A stretch of 64,000 nucleotides of DNA, from positions 500-64,499 of the forward strand of contig CALZKF010000004.1 in the NCBI GenBank assembly GCA_945787955.1. The letters are read 5' to 3'. The stretch is from an uncultured Acidobacteriota bacterium (GTDB lineage Bacteria; Acidobacteriota; Polarisedimenticolia; Polarisedimenticolales; Polarisedimenticolaceae). The translations under genes were made by a program, and so were the position numbers. Positions 50,336 to 56,823 of this stretch are shown here, piece by piece; the stretch's first letter is position 1, and every line of letters starts with the position of its first letter. The notes beneath the pieces were generated by a model. That model did no database searches, was not told the DNA's origin, and was given only the letters and a program-made list of their open reading frames with translations.

Positions 50336-51253
50336 TTGTACCCCTTTTGTCCGGTATCGGGGGGCAGGCCGTTGCGGTTGGATCTCCTTGCTTCTGTCGT
50401 CATCTGGGGATGGACCTTTGTTGCGACACGGGTCTGCCTGCAGGTTCTGACACCGGCGGAAGTGTTGACGCTCCGTCTGTGGATCGCCATCCCGGTTCTG
50501 GCGGTCATCGCCACAGTCCGGAAAAAGAGACTGTCCGTAACCGGTCGCGAGCTCGGCCCGTTGCTGACCGGGTCCGCCCTGCTGACTGCCCATTTCCTGG
50601 TGCAGATCACCGGGCTGAAGCACACATCGGCCACCAATACGGGCTGGATCATCGCCGCCATACCGCTGGTCATGGCGGTGCTGTCGTTCCTGATCCTTGG
50701 CGAACGGCTCGGGAAGCGGGAGCTGGCCGGCATCGCCATTGCAACCCTGGGGATCATCCTGCTGGTTTCCCGGGGACGGGTCGGGGATCTGGCCTGGTTG
50801 AAGAGCACCGGGGACTGGCTCATCCTTGCTTCCTGTCATACCTGGGCGCTGTTCACAATCGCCACACGGGATCTGACTCGGCGGCGGGACCCCCTGGTTG
50901 TGACCCTGTTGCTGATGATCCCCTCTGCGGTGGTGATGACATCCTGGACCTTCGTTCGGTCCGACACGGCACGATGGCTGGAACTGCCTGCCGAAGCGGT
51001 TGTGGCGCTGCTGTTCCTGGGGATCCTGGGCACCGCCGCCGCCCACCTGTTCTGGCAGCGCGGTGTTGCAGCCCTGGGTGCCTCCAGGGCCGGAATCTAC
51101 CTGTTCCTGGAGCCGCTGGCGACTACAGCTCTTGCGGTGCCGTACCTCCGTGAGCCGTTCGGACCGTTTACCGCCGTCGGCGGCGGGCTGGTTTTGCTCG
51201 GCGTGTGGTGGGCGTTTCGGAGGAAGGACGGTGCTTCCGGTCGATCAGGATGA
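50336..51253 (+). CDS. DMT-superfamily transporter (two EamA domains)
   Basis: 10-TM pattern with duplicated EamA-like halves. The TTG start at 50336 is uncertain. Confidence 0.8.
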   Translation: MYPFCPVSGGRPLRLDLLASVVIWGWTFVATRVCLQVLTPAEVLTLRLWIAIPVLAVIATVRKKRLSVTGRELGPLLTGSALLTAHFLVQITGLKHTSATNTGWIIAAIPLVMAVLSFLILGERLGKRELAGIAIATLGIILLVSRGRVGDLAWLKSTGDWLILASCHTWALFTIATRDLTRRRDPLVVTLLLMIPSAVVMTSWTFVRSDTARWLELPAEAVVALLFLGILGTAAAHLFWQRGVAALGASRAGIYLFLEPLATTALAVPYLREPFGPFTAVGGGLVLLGVWWAFRRKDGASGRSG

Positions 51254-51934
51254 AGTCAGGATGGTCTGCAGGCCGTTGACGTACTTGGAGAATCGGCCGA
51301 CCCGGACCGGGATGTCGGAGACGACCCGTCCCAGGTCACGGAACGATCTGTCCACAGCCTTCGCTTCCACAATCATCACGTCCGGCAGGTTGGCTTTGGC
51401 GGTTCGGTTGGGGCTGCGGGACAGGCGTTGGTCCAGTACGGCGAGGCCGGTGTCCAGCGTGATGCGGACCCGGCCGTCCCGAGAGACGAAATACTCCCTG
51501 TGATAGCGGTTGATGATCACCGGCTCAGGATGGTTGTCAAGCCACTGTTGTGCCTCCATGGGGAGGCGGTCGCGCAAATCGCGGCCGATCTGCCGCCAGG
51601 TCCGGCCGAGGAACGGCAGTCCCCGAACCGCATACGTGGTCTTCCAGCCGAGACGGTTCTTTTTCTGTTTCAATTCAAGCTTGCCGTCAAGGGCCGGCTT
51701 GTCGGAACCGTACCATCTCAGGCGGATCTTGGTGCGTTCGCTCACACCGGACAGGTTCTCGGCGTAAGTCACCAGGTCGAAGTTGTCGAAATAGACGTTG
51801 TTGACCCGCCGTGGCGGGTAGGCTACACGGAAACCCTCGGCGTGTGTCTTCACCCAGCCGTGCATTCTGTAAGCTTCGGGGCGGGGCACGACGAATTTGA
51901 TCTCGTACCGCAGATCATCCAGGGGAATCGTCAT
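51245..51934 (-). CDS. VTC-domain protein (polyphosphate-polymerase-like triphosphate tunnel fold)
   Basis: MTIPLDDLRYEIKFVV..., NVYFDN, IRLRWY and LELKQK strand signatures. ATG 51934 overlaps the upstream stop as ATGA. Confidence 0.8.
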   Translation of the reverse strand: MTIPLDDLRYEIKFVVPRPEAYRMHGWVKTHAEGFRVAYPPRRVNNVYFDNFDLVTYAENLSGVSERTKIRLRWYGSDKPALDGKLELKQKKNRLGWKTTYAVRGLPFLGRTWRQIGRDLRDRLPMEAQQWLDNHPEPVIINRYHREYFVSRDGRVRITLDTGLAVLDQRLSRSPNRTAKANLPDVMIVEAKAVDRSFRDLGRVVSDIPVRVGRFSKYVNGLQTILTSS

Positions 51935-53196
51935 TTTTTCATATACCCCTCTTTGTACAGGGCATCGACGTCCAGATCTTCCGCCGGGATCTCCCGCCCA
52001 TCCACAACCACTCTGCTGCCGGTCTGGGCGAGAGCCTTCTCGCCGGCGCCGGATACGTCGACTTTGTCGGCCACAAGTTCGGCCGGTCCGTACTCCGGCT
52101 TTTTTACGTACGCCATCAGCCCGACATGGACAATGCCGGTCATGACGCAATCGTGGATTGTTGTTGTAGAACGATCCTTGCTGACCACACCGGTGCCGGC
52201 GTTTTCAATCCGGATGAGGTTCGCGGAAAGCGTACTGGCCTCGCCGACGGAGATCGCCTTGTCTCTGATCTCGCGGAAGACCGTCCCTTCCACCTCGATG
52301 TCGGAACCGCTGAAATCGATCCCGTCCCCTCCGACGCGCTCCACGGTGCCACCTGTAATTCTGCCGTCGGAGAAGTCACCGTCGAAGGCATCGGAGCGAG
52401 TGTCGTTGAAATCGCAGTCGCTGAGCGAAAAGCTGCTCCGGATCGTGTTGAGGGCGTCTTCGGCTTTTGTGCCGAGGAAGGATACGTGATCCAGGTCGAT
52501 CCGGCTGTCGTGGAACGTAAGCCCTCCGGTCATGGTCCAGTCGCCCAGTCGAAATCCCGAGGTGTTGGTGATCTGCACCCAGGCCAGGCTGGAGGTCGCT
52601 CCATCACCCAGCACAAGGATGCCGGGCCAGCCAGCTTCGCCGCCACCGGAAGGTTTGAGGATGACCGGCTCGGTTTCGGTGCCGTTCATGACGACAGCGC
52701 CACGTACCAGGACCGCACATTCAGGTCCGAATCTCAGGGTCGTGCCGGCTTCAACCCGGAGTCCCGTGTCCCGGGGCAGGATCAGGGGGCGGTCTATCTC
52801 GAAGTTGCCGGGGCCGACCTGGAACATGCCGGTGGTCGCATCGAACGTCAGCAGGCCATGGTCGGCCAGCACCTCGTCGATAGTCGGATGCGGTATGGCC
52901 GGGGATACGGCCGCTTCCGGATACTCCATGGCGATGAATCGGTACTGTCGGTCCTGCCCGACGATTGAGGCGAGCCCTTCGATCAGGAGCGGACCAGGGT
53001 CGGCAGGCTGGACCGGCAGTTCCACACGGCGGTAGGCCGGGGAGCCGCCGAACGGTGTCGGCGGAAGTTCCAGGCTGTCCGGCAGGGTCAGGTCTTCCGG
53101 CTGAACCCGGATCTCACCGACGGAGACCTCAACAGGCAGGAGGTTGGCGAGCTCAAGGTACTGCCGGTCACCGGTCCGGATCAGCCGGGCCTGCAC
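51931..53196 (-). CDS. Right-handed parallel beta-helix domain; probable C-terminal part of the upstream CotH gene (frameshift)
   Basis: Repeated PbH1-like turns (GGLTFHDSRIDLDHVSF, DALNTIRSSFSLSDCDF, DAFDGDFSDGRITGGTV, GIDFSGSDIEVEGTVF, AISVGEASTLSANLIRI). The frame stays open and protein-like upstream of the GTG (..AFDPIIQRAEALQTVDNDALFGFGNALHTADTRYPQVV). Confidence 0.75.
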   Translation of the reverse strand: MQARLIRTGDRQYLELANLLPVEVSVGEIRVQPEDLTLPDSLELPPTPFGGSPAYRRVELPVQPADPGPLLIEGLASIVGQDRQYRFIAMEYPEAAVSPAIPHPTIDEVLADHGLLTFDATTGMFQVGPGNFEIDRPLILPRDTGLRVEAGTTLRFGPECAVLVRGAVVMNGTETEPVILKPSGGGEAGWPGILVLGDGATSSLAWVQITNTSGFRLGDWTMTGGLTFHDSRIDLDHVSFLGTKAEDALNTIRSSFSLSDCDFNDTRSDAFDGDFSDGRITGGTVERVGGDGIDFSGSDIEVEGTVFREIRDKAISVGEASTLSANLIRIENAGTGVVSKDRSTTTIHDCVMTGIVHVGLMAYVKKPEYGPAELVADKVDVSGAGEKALAQTGSRVVVDGREIPAEDLDVDALYKEGYMKK

Positions 53197-54452
53197 GACC
53201 TGCGGGTAACGTGTGTCGGCGGTGTGCAGGGCGTTGCCGAACCCGAACAGTGCGTCGTTGTCAACGGTCTGAAGAGCCTCTGCACGCTGGATGATCGGGT
53301 CGAATGCAGAGCACCGGCAAACTCGGATCGGACCCGGGGGTCCGCCAGGAAGCGGTGACAGATCGGCTCGTTCTCGAGCAGAAGATTGCGGTCGATGTGA
53401 TGGGCCTGCAGGTTCGCATCGAAGCCGATCGGTTCCAGTTCCCGATCCACAGGGTTGTAGTACAGCCGCAGGTTGTGCCAGCGGACGGCGTGGATGGAGC
53501 CCCAGATCTCCGAGAGAGCCAGGAAACGGCCCAGAAGTTTCTCGTCGAATACGTCGGAGGCCGGCAACCGCCCGTCCACAAATCCCCGGAGGAGGGCTCG
53601 CGCTTCACGGTAGTCTGAAGTCAGCGCCGGGCTTTTGGCGATCCGGCCGGTCTGGAAGGCTGAAATGGTGGCGGTTTTGTAGTTCTCGTAAGGTCCATGG
53701 GCTTTGTTGATCAGCATGTTTTCCCAGAAGAGTGACTCATCAAACTTCAGGACCACCCCTTCCCTGCGATCCTGGGATTCCAGCAACTCCTTGCTGAAAT
53801 GCTCCTCCAGGGCCATCAGACCCAACTCCTTGCCGTTCCTGACCACATTCACGAAGCTGTAGCGTGGCGCCAGGATGCCCTCATCCCGCAGCGAGTCCAT
53901 AAACAGCGGCTCGGCCTGGAAACCGCGGGTTTCAGGTGCCTGGATGGAAAACCGCCTCATACCGAGGATCGCATCACCGCCACGGACCTGGATCCGAAGG
54001 GACCATTTCTCGGTTTCCAGGTGATCGGGCAGGTCGCCCTTCAGCCGCAACCGCACCCGGTGGGTCGCCGATCCGTGCCGGATCTCGGCCCGCACCAGGT
54101 CATCGGAGCCGGTTACCAGCAGGCCCTGGGCCAGGGCCTCGTCCCGTTTCCGGTGGATCTGTTGCAGGCTCTCGAACGGAATATCCAGGATCAGTTTTTC
54201 GGGCTCGCTCCCTGAGGTTGCGGCCGCAAGCCAGCGCCCCGGCGCTCCGGCCACCGCCGCAACGGAGGATGCGACGGAAGCGCGGCCGGTCAGGGATTGG
54301 AGGTTGGGCCTGATGAAATCGAGGAACGCGAATCCGGCTGCGAACATCACGCCGGACCACACAGCCAGAAGCGCCAGAAGGATCACCAGTCGATATCGTC
54401 GACGTCCCGGCAGCATGGGGCGCTGCTTGTTCGTTCGGGATCGGATCAGCAT
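53181..54452 (-). CDS. CotH-family (atypical kinase fold) protein with N-terminal membrane anchor; the 3' end is out of frame
   Basis: TM anchor LVILLALLAVWSGVMFAAGFAF. CotH-like core (WSLRIQVRGG..., NVVRNGKELGLMALEEHF, WHNLRLYYNP). The last ~45 codons (HSTRSSSVQRLFRPLTTTHCSG...) are not protein-like. Confidence 0.75.
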   Translation of the reverse strand: MLIRSRTNKQRPMLPGRRRYRLVILLALLAVWSGVMFAAGFAFLDFIRPNLQSLTGRASVASSVAAVAGAPGRWLAAATSGSEPEKLILDIPFESLQQIHRKRDEALAQGLLVTGSDDLVRAEIRHGSATHRVRLRLKGDLPDHLETEKWSLRIQVRGGDAILGMRRFSIQAPETRGFQAEPLFMDSLRDEGILAPRYSFVNVVRNGKELGLMALEEHFSKELLESQDRREGVVLKFDESLFWENMLINKAHGPYENYKTATISAFQTGRIAKSPALTSDYREARALLRGFVDGRLPASDVFDEKLLGRFLALSEIWGSIHAVRWHNLRLYYNPVDRELEPIGFDANLQAHHIDRNLLLENEPICHRFLADPRVRSEFAGALHSTRSSSVQRLFRPLTTTHCSGSATPCTPPTHVTRRSCRPG

Positions 54453-54456
54453 GGAT

Positions 54457-55137
54457 CTAAACGCTTGGCAGGCGGTTTTGATCGATGAACGTCAGATCAA
54501 TTCCGGGGAACGCCACCCGCAGCTCGTCCAGCATGGTAACCAGGCTGGTTTCATGCTCGATGTCCACAAAGAAAGTCGCGTCAACCTGGCCTTCCGCCGT
54601 ATCGACCCGGCGCATATCCTGGGACAGAGTGTGCTTACCCAGGATCTCGGTCACCAGGTTGAGGAAATTGCCCTCGCCGACTTTTTCGCTGTACCGCACC
54701 GACAGAAACATGCTTTTCTGGTCGATCCGCCGCCCGGCACGTTTGTACACCGCTACGATCAAGAGGATGACCGCGGCGGCCATCAGCGTCGCTCCCCTTC
54801 GGTCCGCACCCAGTCCCAGTCCTACGGCGATCGCCATGAAAAGATAGGCCAGTTCTTCCGGCTCCTTGATCGGTGTCCGGAACCGGACGATCGACAGTGC
54901 ACCGACCAGGCCCAGTGAGAGGGCCAGGGAGGATTTCACGACACTGATGATGAGGATCGTGGTCAGCAGGATGAACGGAAAAACCTGGGCAAAGGCGCCT
55001 CGGTTCGAAAGGGTGGATGCGAATTTGCCGAAGTGCCACTTGAGGACGCCGGCGAGGATCGCGCCGATGACCAGGTTGATCAATAGATCGGTGATTGCCA
55101 GCGGCTCTCCCGACGACAAAAAGCTCAGTTCCTGCAT
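54457..55137 (-). CDS. DUF4956 family membrane protein
   Basis: 4-5 TM helices, the SIVRFRTPIKEPEELAYLF signature and a soluble C-terminal domain. ATG 55137; the track TTG is at 55143. Confidence 0.8.
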   Translation of the reverse strand: MQELSFLSSGEPLAITDLLINLVIGAILAGVLKWHFGKFASTLSNRGAFAQVFPFILLTTILIISVVKSSLALSLGLVGALSIVRFRTPIKEPEELAYLFMAIAVGLGLGADRRGATLMAAAVILLIVAVYKRAGRRIDQKSMFLSVRYSEKVGEGNFLNLVTEILGKHTLSQDMRRVDTAEGQVDATFFVDIEHETSLVTMLDELRVAFPGIDLTFIDQNRLPSV

Positions 55138-55219
55138 GTTCAATTCCTAGTAAATGGATATGCAATGCTTAAGCTGGAAATATACTCTACAGGAGTAGCC
55201 GGGACAATGGCGGATTACG

Positions 55220-55633
55220 TCATGCCAGAGGCTCCATGCCGGTCTTGCCTCCATACCGGGGCATATCGTCGGTAATTTCATGCCAGTCCGCCTTGTGATC
55301 GACGTAGACGTGGGCGCCGGGCGACCTCTCGATGTCGCCGTTGATCACCGCTCTGGCGATATGGATCTCGGATTCCCAGCGCGGCCCCTCGTAGAACAGG
55401 GTCGTGCCGCAGTGCCTGCAAAAGGAGCGGGTCGCGCCGGTGTCGGTCCGGTAACGCACCAGGTTTTCCTCACCGGCGGTGAATCGGAACTGCTGCACCG
55501 GGTAACCGACCCAGGTCACGAAAGCGGCGCCGTGAGCCCGGCGGCAGTTTTGGCAGTGGCAGTGGGCGCAAAAACGGCCGGGAGGTTCGACCTCGAACCG
55601 GATCGCCCCGCACAAGCAGTTCCCGTCATTCAT
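55220..55633 (-). CDS. GFA (glutathione-dependent formaldehyde-activating / CENP-V-like) family protein
   Basis: Cys-rich zinc sites CLCGAIRF, CHCQNC and FCRHCG. Confidence 0.85.
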   Translation of the reverse strand: MNDGNCLCGAIRFEVEPPGRFCAHCHCQNCRRAHGAAFVTWVGYPVQQFRFTAGEENLVRYRTDTGATRSFCRHCGTTLFYEGPRWESEIHIARAVINGDIERSPGAHVYVDHKADWHEITDDMPRYGGKTGMEPLA

Positions 55634-56307
55634 GGCGTCTCCCGGGGACGGCGGTACCAGGCAAAGTAATGCGGCACCGGCGGGTCCTGATCGTCGTCGT
55701 ACTCCACGAGATGCTGCCGAACAAGACCGGCTTTTTCAAAACCGTCGAGCTCATGGCGGTCCAGCGGCAGAGGGAACTCATCCTCCCTCTCGCCGGAGTT
55801 TCGACTGCGGCAGGAAACCAGTACCACACCGCCTGGTGCAACCATGCCTGCGATGGCGTTCAGTGCACGCAAGCGGTATTCACCGGGCAACGCCTGGATC
55901 GTGTTGCATTCGAACACCAGGTCGAACCCCGCTTTCCATTCAGGCGGGTGTTCGAACAGGTCGGCGACCAGGTAATCGACCCGGCTGTCCGGATAACGCT
56001 CGCGGCACATCCGGATGGCGGTTGGTGCGATATCGAAGGCGGTCACCCGGTAACCGCAGCCGGCCATCGCCTCGGCGTCATCTCCCAGGCCGCAGCCGAT
56101 GGTGATCGCCTGCTGTTCCGGTTTCGGGGCAGGATGATCCTTCATCCAGGACACCAGGTGGGGGCTGGGCGCAAGGTCGGCCCAGTGCACCGCGGAGAGA
56201 TCGTCGCCGGCGTTGCGGTAAACCGAATCGAACCAGCCGGTCGGGTCGTCCCTGTGGTGATGGGAGTCGACCATCTTCCGGAATTGTTTCTTTGCCGCGT
56301 CGTCCAT
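55630..56307 (-). CDS. Class I SAM-dependent methyltransferase (TPMT-like)
   Basis: ITIGCGLGDDAEAMA motif I and VTAFDIAP. ATGA overlap with the GFA gene. Confidence 0.8.
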   Translation of the reverse strand: MDDAAKKQFRKMVDSHHHRDDPTGWFDSVYRNAGDDLSAVHWADLAPSPHLVSWMKDHPAPKPEQQAITIGCGLGDDAEAMAGCGYRVTAFDIAPTAIRMCRERYPDSRVDYLVADLFEHPPEWKAGFDLVFECNTIQALPGEYRLRALNAIAGMVAPGGVVLVSCRSRNSGEREDEFPLPLDRHELDGFEKAGLVRQHLVEYDDDQDPPVPHYFAWYRRPRETP

Positions 56308-56433
56308 ATGACCTTCAACTTACCAGTTCAAGCCGTCCGGGTCTAACGTAGCAGCCGCGGGCCCGGAGGTGCGTCCGCTTCAGCCGGGTCACTGATTGGG
56401 AGGCTTTTTCCATGAATATTTTGGAGCGTGTAT

Positions 56434-56823
56434 TCAATTGACGGCAAACGGTTCGCTCAAGGTAAAGGTGCCGATGGCGATCTCGAACATGTTTCCGTCC
56501 GTATCCCTCATGAGGTAGCTGCCGGACATGGTGCCGAAGGAGGTCGGCAGGGGACAGAACGACGTGTACTCGTGTGCCGCACCGGACTCCAGCACCGGTT
56601 GCCGCCCGACCACCCCTTCGCCACGGACGTGTTCCTCCTGGCCGTCGGCGTCGGTGATGATCCAGTGCCGGCTGACTAGTTGCACGGTTCGGTCGCTCTC
56701 ATTCGTGATCCTGATGTGATAGGCGAACAACCAGCGCTTCTGTTCAGGCTCGGATTGCTCCGGAACATACTCCGCCCGTACTTCGACCCGGATTCCATCG
56801 GTTACGGCCTCGGATATGGACAT
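56434..56823 (-). CDS. apaG: ApaG (DUF525) protein
   Basis: FAYHIRITNES..., RHWIITDADG, GEGVVGRQPVL and the C-terminal GTFTL pattern. Confidence 0.88.
   Translation of the reverse strand: MSISEAVTDGIRVEVRAEYVPEQSEPEQKRWLFAYHIRITNESDRTVQLVSRHWIITDADGQEEHVRGEGVVGRQPVLESGAAHEYTSFCPLPTSFGTMSGSYLMRDTDGNMFEIAIGTFTLSEPFAVN

Follow-up and report, generated by a model that had tools for sequence, protein, structure and literature searches.

A three-gene cassette and its conservation

A metagenome-assembled contig from an acidobacterium (Acidobacteriota) related to Candidatus (Ca.) Polarisedimenticola carries, within the 64,000-nucleotide stretch that we analysed (hereafter the window), a compact cassette of three minus-strand genes encoding a DUF4956 membrane protein, a protein that joins a CotH fold to a beta-helix, and a VTC-domain protein. 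In the window's list of open reading frames (ORFs) the cassette appears as four successive minus-strand ORFs in 51245-55137, with the middle gene divided over two of them. The DUF4956 gene (54457-55137, minus strand, 226 amino acids) comes first and is separated by only 4 nt (TAG-ATCC-ATG) from the CotH-fold/beta-helix gene. The 5' part of this second gene occupies 53305-54452 (within an ORF of 53181-54452, its extent taken from alignments to intact orthologues), its 3' part continues in the -1 frame over 51931-53304 (including an ORF of 51931-53196), and its stop codon is overlapped by the start of the VTC gene (51245-51934, minus strand, 229 amino acids) in the motif ATGA. A first-pass annotation of this DNA, made from its letters and ORFs, had named the same three families, and the ORF list together with Pfam confirmed all three at these positions; the short spacer and the ATGA overlap are likewise as it had described them. 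Pfam recognized DUF4956, VTC and Beta_helix, and the CotH assignment held by fold, using Foldseek, its sequence match being sub-threshold. None of the four ORFs was matched by any NCBIfam model.

Linkage of the three families, which the first-pass annotation had suggested examining through gene neighbourhoods across genomes, proved to be strong. We scanned GTDB, at one genome per species, using a VTC alignment as the query, which returned 566 relatives; the best 80 loci were fetched and annotated with hidden Markov models (HMMs) built from homologues, and linkage was counted over the 67 loci with at least 3.7 kb of upstream sequence. A DUF4956 gene adjoins the VTC gene in every one of these 67 loci, the full trio of DUF4956, CotH-like/beta-helix and VTC genes lies on one strand in 61 of them, and the exact gene order found in the window (DUF4956, then CotH, then VTC) recurs in 56. 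Two apparent exceptions to the trio have a canonical CotH, in an LTD-CotH protein at locus L068 (Pfam E 1e-47) and an LTD-CotH-beta-helix protein at locus L072. The loci span more than ten phyla, with representatives in the Acidobacteriota, Myxococcota, Nitrospinota, Nitrospirota, Gamma- and Alphaproteobacteria, Planctomycetota (including Ca. Uabimicrobium amorphum), Chloroflexota, Latescibacterota, Sumerlaeota, Armatimonadota and Actinomycetota. Clustering of 657 flanking ORFs revealed no fourth partner gene, and because no further family occurred in more than 10 of the 80 loci we regard the cassette as a self-contained, horizontally mobile three-gene unit that is distributed over many environmental diderm phyla. 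Its parts have also diverged together: their pairwise-distance matrices correlate with r values of 0.62-0.80, at levels reached in 0 of 500 permutations, and the highest correlation, that between VTC and DUF4956 (r 0.80), is on a par with that between the two halves of the middle protein (0.77). The three genes are thus co-inherited as a unit.

Several variations on the cassette were apparent among the sampled loci. Two or three paralogous cassettes can occur in one genome, on different contigs, as in the Nitrospina metagenome-assembled genome (MAG) JABHBK01 (L016, L029 and L030) and the gammaproteobacterial MAG JAAERX01 (L020 and L025). A gene for a calcineurin-like metallophosphoesterase lies directly beside the cassette in 10 of the 80 loci, in seven of these on the cassette strand (L023:2100-3362, L024:10679-11596, L054:10868-11953, L069:3425-4528, L075:10660-11727 and five more). 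This protein, for which a representative gave a Pfam E value of 2.7e-12, has an N-terminal signal-like segment and a C-terminal transmembrane anchor, and could be an extracytoplasmic (poly)phosphatase partner. In a variant that has no CotH gene (L009:6535-13621), the DUF4956-VTC pair follows genes for a PAS histidine kinase and a sigma-54 response regulator and is itself followed by genes for a heparinase II/III-like lyase and a GT4 glycosyltransferase.

The surroundings of the window cassette are unremarkable with respect to its possible function, as the flanking genes have no relation to polysaccharide or phosphate metabolism. On the upstream side, genes for a GFA-family protein, a methyltransferase, ApaG and a P-type ATPase lie on the same strand, with the GFA gene (55220-55633) directly upstream of the cassette and the methyltransferase gene before it. 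The syntenic locus L001 of a Ca. Polarisedimenticola relative differs here (L001:7363-8463), having no GFA gene and a gene for a 4Fe-4S ferredoxin-type protein between ApaG and the methyltransferase. On the downstream side are a convergent EamA gene, a Tll0287-like gene and pumps of the resistance-nodulation-division type. The 3' end of the VTC gene overlaps the EamA gene (plus strand, 50336-51253) by 9 nt (51245-51253), leaving no space for a terminator, and this convergent overlap is also present in L001. With regard to expression, the first-pass annotation had pointed to an AT-rich putative promoter region ahead of the DUF4956 gene. The 82-nt leader (55138-55219, minus strand) is indeed AT-rich, with a GC content of 42.7% versus 62.5% window-wide, and contains a weak sigma-70-like site (TTGTCC-17-TATATT, 55207-55179) and an AGGAA Shine-Dalgarno-like motif 5' of the ATG; its designation as a promoter found no such backing, since the region scanned held two promoter-like sites against 1.1 expected from shuffles, which is not significant. 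Rfam gave no match at E <= 1 over 50900-56500, which takes in the leader and the operon, and hence no riboswitch or other RNA. PADLOC, which models known anti-phage defence systems, returned 0 matches for the three proteins, and that identity was rejected.

Predicted properties of the three proteins

The VTC ORF scores 103.8 bits with Pfam model PF09359 (E 1.4e-29), for which the cutoff is 23, and residues 9-224 of the protein span positions 2-233 of the 235 in the profile. The 229-residue product is a soluble, single-domain protein that contains no SPX domain and no DUF202 or other transmembrane domain. In the yeast polymerase Vtc4, triphosphate is bound by K200, R264, R266, K281, R361, K458, S457 and Y359 and Mn2+ by E426; all of these residues are required for polyphosphate synthesis, and K458 is the sole ligand altered, to Ile or Leu, in the inactive paralogues Vtc2 and Vtc3 (10.1101/2023.01.27.525886). 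HMMER alignments place R264, R266, K281, Y359, R361, S457 and K458 at R71, R73, K89, Y144, R146, S216 and K217 of the window protein. These mapped residues, seven of the nine, are invariant in the bacterial alignment, with K217 present in 23 of 23 sequences, so that conservation of the tunnel residues, another point on which the first-pass annotation had sought confirmation, is upheld. On this basis the tunnel looks catalytically competent. The family to which the window protein belongs is large, comprising 8,806 clusters at 50% identity (E <= 1e-3), or 3,795 at E <= 1e-10, and the best 150 of the 8,806 clusters consist of short single-domain proteins of 181-321 amino acids, mostly ~220-250.

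The TTM/CYTH (triphosphate tunnel metalloenzyme) superfamily is functionally diverse, and the VTC protein might be another kind of tunnel enzyme, such as a tripolyphosphatase, a nucleoside triphosphate phosphohydrolase or a polyphosphate binder, in which case the cassette would serve phosphate homeostasis or signalling, with an MgtC-like membrane protein at its centre. The protein resembles Vtc4 only weakly in sequence (phmmer E 7.5e-4, profile E 2.7e-5), the VTC profile ranks the inactive Vtc2 and Vtc3 above Vtc4, and short-fragment searches yielded no usable alignment for Vtc4 K200 and E426, all of which are compatible with such an activity. However, the Pfam VTC model is matched from end to end at an E value of about 1e-29, and every Vtc4 triphosphate ligand that can be aligned is invariant, including the K458 equivalent that separates active Vtc4 from Vtc2 and Vtc3. 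We therefore consider a non-polymerizing tunnel enzyme improbable.

The DUF4956 ORF reaches 62.4 bits with Pfam PF16316 (E 5.7e-17; cutoff 30.6), a model that also matches all 40 of the homologues that we aligned. An AlphaFold2 (AF2) model of the protein, with a mean predicted local distance difference test (pLDDT) of 77, contains five transmembrane helices followed by a beta-alpha-beta-beta-alpha-beta domain of the ACT/ferredoxin-like type. By the positive-inside rule, the N-terminus would lie outside, and the loop RFRTPIKEPEE and the ACT-like domain would lie in the cytoplasm. DUF4956 is thus predicted to be a polytopic membrane protein with a cytoplasmic domain of a ligand-binding type. Conservation is concentrated in a core of 45 residues, VVKSSLALSLGLVGALSIVRFRTPIKEPEELAYLF..GLGLGA (residues ~66-111, window 54862-55000), which is nearly invariant across phyla in the 40-sequence alignment, the rest of the protein being ~55% identical. 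Such constraint is unusually strong for a small membrane protein.

Two identities for DUF4956 were considered and discarded. The first was that of a Vtc1-like channel. Foldseek matched the C-terminal domain to ACT, SerB2-ACT, CutA and PII-like folds and gave no match for the membrane part, and a sequence search of PDB with DUF4956 came back empty; with ACT/ferredoxin-like matches as the only structural similarity, this assignment was rejected. The second was that of an MgtC homologue. MgtC, like its relatives SapB and YhiD, resembles DUF4956 in having ~5 transmembrane helices followed by a cytoplasmic ACT-like domain, and matches to the Pfam MgtC model (PF02308) are colinear in 35 of the 40 homologues. 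These matches are weak (13.1 bits against a cutoff of 31.4; best E 0.0047 among the 40), and hhalign gave a probability of 1.3% for DUF4956 against Escherichia coli YhiD, so we dropped this assignment too as sub-threshold in both comparisons. To our knowledge, MgtC has not been described as a partner of a VTC enzyme.

The VTC and DUF4956 proteins together invite comparison with the eukaryotic VTC complex of Vtc4, Vtc3 and Vtc1. The two systems share the tunnel domain, its triphosphate ligands including the equivalent of K458, and an obligatory small partner with multiple transmembrane helices. They differ in that the bacterial protein has neither the SPX domain nor the fused DUF202 transmembrane domain, in that DUF4956 belongs to a different family and has no detectable structural match to Vtc1, and in the destination of the product, which is the vacuole for the eukaryotic complex and would be the periplasm or cell surface for the bacterial system.

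For the middle gene, the Pfam CotH model (PF08757) matches the ORF at 53181-54452 below threshold (E 4.7e-4, 20.2 bits against a cutoff of 23.8), and the match is limited to profile positions 1-113 of 322. Intact relatives score similarly, at 17.7 bits for P0001, 20.2 for P0007 and 27.0 for P0061, such that only P0061 of the four sequences scanned passes the cutoff. The fold is clearer than the sequence. An AF2 model of the intact orthologue P0001 (pLDDT 90.8; predicted template modelling score, pTM, 0.82) consists of a basic tail, a long signal-anchor helix, a CotH-like domain, a beta-sandwich linker and a right-handed beta-helix, and Foldseek aligned it to the Bacillus cereus CotH structures 5jd9 and 5jda over ~400 columns (E 3.2e-12, template modelling score 0.72). 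The 5' part of the window gene encodes the basic cytoplasmic tail, the signal-anchor transmembrane helix and most of the CotH-like domain, including the catalytic-loop H, N and D. The beta-helix is encoded in the 3' part, where the ORF at 51931-53196 matches Pfam Beta_helix (PF13229; E 1.5e-6, 28.3 bits against a cutoff of 25.9); its strands are short and stacked, at 574-856 in the P0001 model. Foldseek matches for this domain include a GH87 glucanase, the P22 tailspike, pectate lyases, the AlgE4 epimerase and NosD, and a conserved acidic groove is marked by the motifs EDALN, SDAFDGDF, GGDGIDxSGS and DKAxSVGE. The middle protein is accordingly predicted, from these models, to be anchored in the membrane with its kinase-fold and polysaccharide-enzyme-type domains outside the cytoplasm. 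The topology that the first-pass annotation had put forward, with VTC in the cytosol, DUF4956 in the membrane and a signal-anchored CotH/beta-helix protein beyond it, is consistent with all of these predictions.

Whether the CotH-like domain could act as a kinase depends upon its catalytic residues. The activity of Bacillus subtilis CotH requires D228 and D251, as the D228Q and D251A variants are inactive (PMC7821199). When the sequences of the middle proteins were aligned to CotH, at ~16-20% identity, D251 corresponded to D345 of P0001, aligned to the Asp of WD(Y)D and kept in 113 of 116 homologues, and N327, which lies 18 residues upstream of D345 as in B. cereus CotH, was kept in 109 of 116. 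For D228 there are two candidate columns: hhalign to canonical CotH proteins gives H321, a position occupied by His in 112 of 116 homologues, and the 5jd9 profile alignment gives P0001 position 322, which is Ala, Ser, Pro, Gly or Thr. Asp is absent from both columns (321 and 322) among the 116 homologues. The middle protein therefore has a CotH fold with an apparently altered catalytic centre and is not a canonical CotH kinase, and the absence of the catalytic Asp makes canonical phosphorylation by an ATP-dependent kinase doubtful. Of the earlier proposal that this protein phosphorylates a target, the kinase-type fold stands and the catalytic residue does not. Relative to the Bacillus Ser/Thr kinase, with which it shares the atypical kinase fold and the D251 equivalent, the protein also differs in the residue next to the His (Ala, Ser, Pro or Gly), in its predicted membrane anchor and extracytoplasmic location, and in its fusion to a beta-helix.

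In loci from Chloroflexota the cassette is followed by a gene for a further large paralogue related to CotH (L059:8420-10912, L070:14628-16079, L074:14666-17119, L077:14592-16625 and L082:14779-17559). By eye, the NxD...WDxD catalytic-loop motifs of these paralogues look degenerate (...GFPAAELYA...FLYGGG...), which suggests that they are pseudo-enzymes.

The break in the middle gene

The first-pass annotation described the change of frame within the CotH/beta-helix gene as a frameshift. DNA and protein alignments replace this with a deletion. The closest relative for the operon DNA is L001, which is syntenic and 83% identical to the window at the nucleotide level across 51245-55137. In a MAFFT alignment, the window and L001 are separated by a single 112-nt gap, at 53304/53305 on the minus strand; the other differences in length are one in-frame 6-nt gap and a 1-nt difference in the intergenic spacer. 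The deletion amounts to 37 codons plus 1 nt and equals RLTGQVLDGTLISRWQDREKRYLHILNREYPVRAPID in the relative, and in the protein alignment the window lacks 37 residues precisely at the change of frame. Homologues of the joined protein are single ORFs encoding ~880 amino acids, with intact 879-residue ORFs in L001-L003, and the nearest of them, from Acidobacteriota MAGs (Ca. Polarisedimenticola and Polarisedimenticolaceae), are 69-79% identical. As the frame changes exactly at a 112-nt gap relative to intact orthologues, it reflects neither a homopolymer error nor a programmed frameshift, and a simple frameshift of either kind is ruled out.

Among the residues lost with the deletion is the predicted helix 393-409 of the CotH-like domain (P0001 numbering). 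Past 53305 the 5' piece runs out of register for ~41 codons and ends at a stop codon at 53181-53183, and the beta-helix piece lacks both a start codon and a signal sequence in front of a GTG at 53196; a 3' piece of 421 amino acids is called as a gene on the source contig. The copy of the middle gene in the window is thus probably inactivated by the deletion, which would leave the extracytoplasmic arm of the system non-functional in this genome while the DUF4956 and VTC genes remain intact. To this extent, and for this genome only, the decay that the first-pass annotation had named as telling against its proposal is found. Ratios of nonsynonymous to synonymous substitution rates (dN/dS) relative to L001 are 0.08 for both DUF4956 and VTC and rise to 0.12 in the 5' piece and 0.21 in the 3' piece of the middle gene, and there are no other stops; values well below 1 in the absence of further stops indicate that the lesion is either recent or an artefact of assembly.

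We lean, by a little over an even chance, towards the former, namely that the cassette in this genome is a decaying remnant with a genuine deletion, a truncated CotH-like domain and no working trio. A length of 112 nt is not a multiple of three and is not a homopolymer miscount, a predicted helix of the CotH-like domain is removed, and dN/dS is highest in the 3' part (0.21 versus 0.08-0.12 elsewhere). The same gene has, in addition, been lost independently and far more extensively elsewhere, at L014 and L029. Against decay stand the lack of more stops, a sole further indel that keeps the frame and dN/dS values well below 1, as well as the fact that the junction is known from a metagenome-assembled contig alone. 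The alternative, that the gap arose in assembly or consensus calling, or belongs to a minority variant, and that the gene is intact (~878 amino acids) in a fully functional cassette, fits the origin of the window in a public assembly, apparently a MAG, and the purifying selection that otherwise acts on all three genes in exact synteny with the relatives. We consider it somewhat unlikely, however, as no repeat is evident at the junction in comparison with the relative and assemblers rarely lose 112 nt of unique sequence.

Only some 150-340 nt of the middle gene survive at L014:817-2377 and L029:2438-4418, where the DUF4956 and VTC genes on either side are complete. The losses are independent events, from which it is evident that loss of the middle gene recurs.

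Known relatives and candidate roles

The three families have been encountered together before. A block of cotH, "poly-phosphate polymerase", DUF4956 and DUF4832 genes is contiguous with pelDEA(DA)FG in streptococci, clostridia and bifidobacteria, where it was described as accessory (Whitfield et al., 10.1101/768473). In Streptococcus intermedius, the three proteins SIR_1592-1594 were described from AF2 models, with a role that "remains to be determined" and the suggestion that, as other VTC subunits are absent, the polyphosphate may stay cytoplasmic (10.1101/2024.04.20.589940). In Clostridium perfringens, NELoc-2 encodes a VTC protein, a membrane protein of 222-226 amino acids annotated as tubulin/FtsZ, and CotH, adjoining a 685-residue protein, a HEAT-repeat protein and a chitin-synthase-like glycosyltransferase; the "tubulin/FtsZ" membrane protein is probably DUF4956. 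A Planococcus maritimus plasmid repeats the NELoc-2 arrangement under current NCBI names and was the one match, a distant one, in a plasmid collection, the window VTC being 24% identical to the protein that it encodes. The literature on these families that we searched consists of descriptive mentions and transcriptome tables, with no functional experiment, in agreement with the earlier statement that the trio has no experimentally assigned role. The trio is therefore one that has already been noticed, in Gram-positive pel operons and in C. perfringens NELoc-2, and never characterized.

The version described here differs in that it stands alone, with no glycan-synthesis genes linked to it, is hosted by environmental diderms, carries a CotH-beta-helix fusion and has His in place of the catalytic Asp. 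The pel accessory block resembles it in combining the same three families, contiguous and co-directional, in a glycan context, and in the predicted properties of the S. intermedius proteins, with CotH secreted, VTC cytoplasmic, and DUF4956 composed of transmembrane helices and an ACT-like domain. It differs in gene order, which in the window is DUF4956, CotH, VTC; in the fusion partner of CotH, which is FN3 in the pel block and a beta-helix here; in the active site, as SIR_1594 is reported with catalytic residues and the window family has His for Asp; and in its hosts, which here belong to diderm environmental phyla. No pel or DUF4832 genes occur in the window flanks, and no flanking family is present in more than 10 of the 80 loci, Pel-specific HMMs not having been run. 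The NELoc-2 and Planococcus loci share with the window the adjacency of VTC, DUF4956 and CotH and differ in having a linked processive glycosyltransferase and HEAT-repeat protein and a CotH that lacks the beta-helix.

Across all of these settings, the partners of the VTC-DUF4956 pair are always glycan-related. They include the beta-helix fusion, LTD/CHB_HEX/Fn3-CotH proteins, the heparinase-like lyase and GT4 glycosyltransferase of L009, the pel operons, and the GT2 synthase loci of the Planococcus plasmid and NELoc-2. The exported metallophosphoesterase encoded beside the cassette in 10 of 80 loci points, for its part, to phosphate chemistry outside the cytoplasm. We tentatively propose, at somewhat less than an even chance, that polyphosphate made by the VTC protein at its DUF4956 partner supplies the CotH/beta-helix protein, which would work outside the cytoplasm as a transferase with a glycan as its substrate. 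The soluble VTC protein would, as a Vtc4-type enzyme, polymerize polyphosphate from ATP at the cytoplasmic face of the inner membrane while docked on a DUF4956 oligomer, with the RFRTPIKEPEE loop and the ACT-like domain as the docking or gating site. DUF4956 would take the role of the transmembrane channel of yeast Vtc1/Vtc4 and would convey either the chain or its phosphoryl groups to the other side of the membrane. On the periplasmic side, the signal-anchored CotH-fold/beta-helix protein would hold a polysaccharide in its beta-helix, and its kinase-like domain, which keeps the metal-binding Asn and Asp and has His for the catalytic Asp, would transfer phosphate or polyphosphate to the glycan, or else tether polyphosphate. 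Polyphosphate is proposed as the donor because the periplasm is without ATP. The CotH of sporulation acts inside the mother cell, where ATP is available, and is not known to have VTC or DUF4956 genes next to it.

A number of observations weigh against this proposal. DUF4956 has no detectable similarity to the Vtc1/Vtc4 channel, and the one protein that it weakly resembles, MgtC, acts as a regulator and not as a channel. The CotH-like domain could, given its altered residues, be a pseudokinase or a binding module. Vtc4 K200 and E426 are linked to K13 (R9-x-E11-x-K13) and E190 (E190-x-K192) by pattern match only, both motifs being invariant. We know of no precedent for polyphosphate as a periplasmic phosphoryl donor. 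Glycan-synthesis genes are not consistently linked to the cassette in diderm loci, and none is present in the window. Finally, L014 and L029 retain DUF4956 and VTC without the middle gene, from which it follows that the pair can stand alone.

Some of the same observations favour a division of the cassette into two separate activities, in which the polyphosphate made by VTC and DUF4956 would be membrane-associated and stay in the cytoplasm, as a store of phosphate or energy or as a regulator of exopolysaccharide production, with the ACT-like domain sensing a metabolite, and the CotH/beta-helix protein would be a separate, co-regulated glycan-binding or pseudokinase module. This arrangement is in keeping with the S. 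intermedius preprint (10.1101/2024.04.20.589940), with its argument from the absence of other VTC subunits, with the MgtC-like layout of transmembrane helices and ACT-like domain in DUF4956 and its weak Pfam matches to that regulator, with the missing catalytic Asp, and with the occurrence of a DUF4956-VTC pair without the middle gene in L009, L014, L027 and L029. Yet it would leave unexplained why a gene for an extracytoplasmic kinase-fold protein lies translationally coupled between the two in 56 of 67 loci across phyla, and why the distances of the middle protein co-vary with those of VTC and DUF4956. Nor does it account for the exported metallophosphoesterase neighbour in 10 loci, and most bacteria already have PPK (polyphosphate kinase) to make polyphosphate in the cytoplasm. 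We consequently regard a purely cytoplasmic role for the polyphosphate as unlikely.

The proposal of a polyphosphate-fed extracytoplasmic transferase can be taken further, to a form that we consider quite unlikely. The trio would then be a polyphosphate-powered extracytoplasmic phosphotransfer machine, in which VTC and a DUF4956 oligomer would thread polyphosphate through the inner membrane, making them the first VTC-type polymerase-translocase from bacteria, and a His-for-Asp CotH enzyme, using polyphosphate and not ATP, would (poly)phosphorylate exopolysaccharide held by the beta-helix. The His of that CotH-fold enzyme might act through a phospho-His intermediate. In this form the cassette would reveal how polyphosphate can be exported and that matrix glycans include a phosphorylated class, and would explain how kinase-fold enzymes can function in compartments free of ATP.

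These findings bear on how polyphosphate synthesis is apportioned among organisms. In the literature, VTC stands for polyphosphate polymerases of the eukaryotic type and PPK for those of the prokaryotic type (e.g. PMC12526157), despite a VTC family of 8,806 clusters with all alignable catalytic residues. In the sampled loci with enough flanking sequence, VTC is always tied to one small membrane protein and usually also to an exported kinase-fold protein, which defines a minimal, portable three-gene unit with candidate key residues at K217, R71 and R73 of VTC, H321, N327 and D345 of the CotH-like protein, and R85, R87 and K91 of DUF4956. The window copy is a damaged example of this cassette and is unsuited for cloning. 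Since streptococci and C. perfringens have this trio beside pel and chitin-synthase-like loci, its function bears on the chemistry of the biofilm matrix in pathogens. If the proposed mechanism is true, bacteria would have a further polyphosphate synthase, their second and a vectorial one, along with a path by which polyphosphate reaches the envelope or biofilm matrix, and the way in which a kinase-like enzyme is powered outside the cytoplasm would be explained. For VTC-type polyphosphate synthesis in bacteria, and its possible export, the cassette is a tractable and widespread case.

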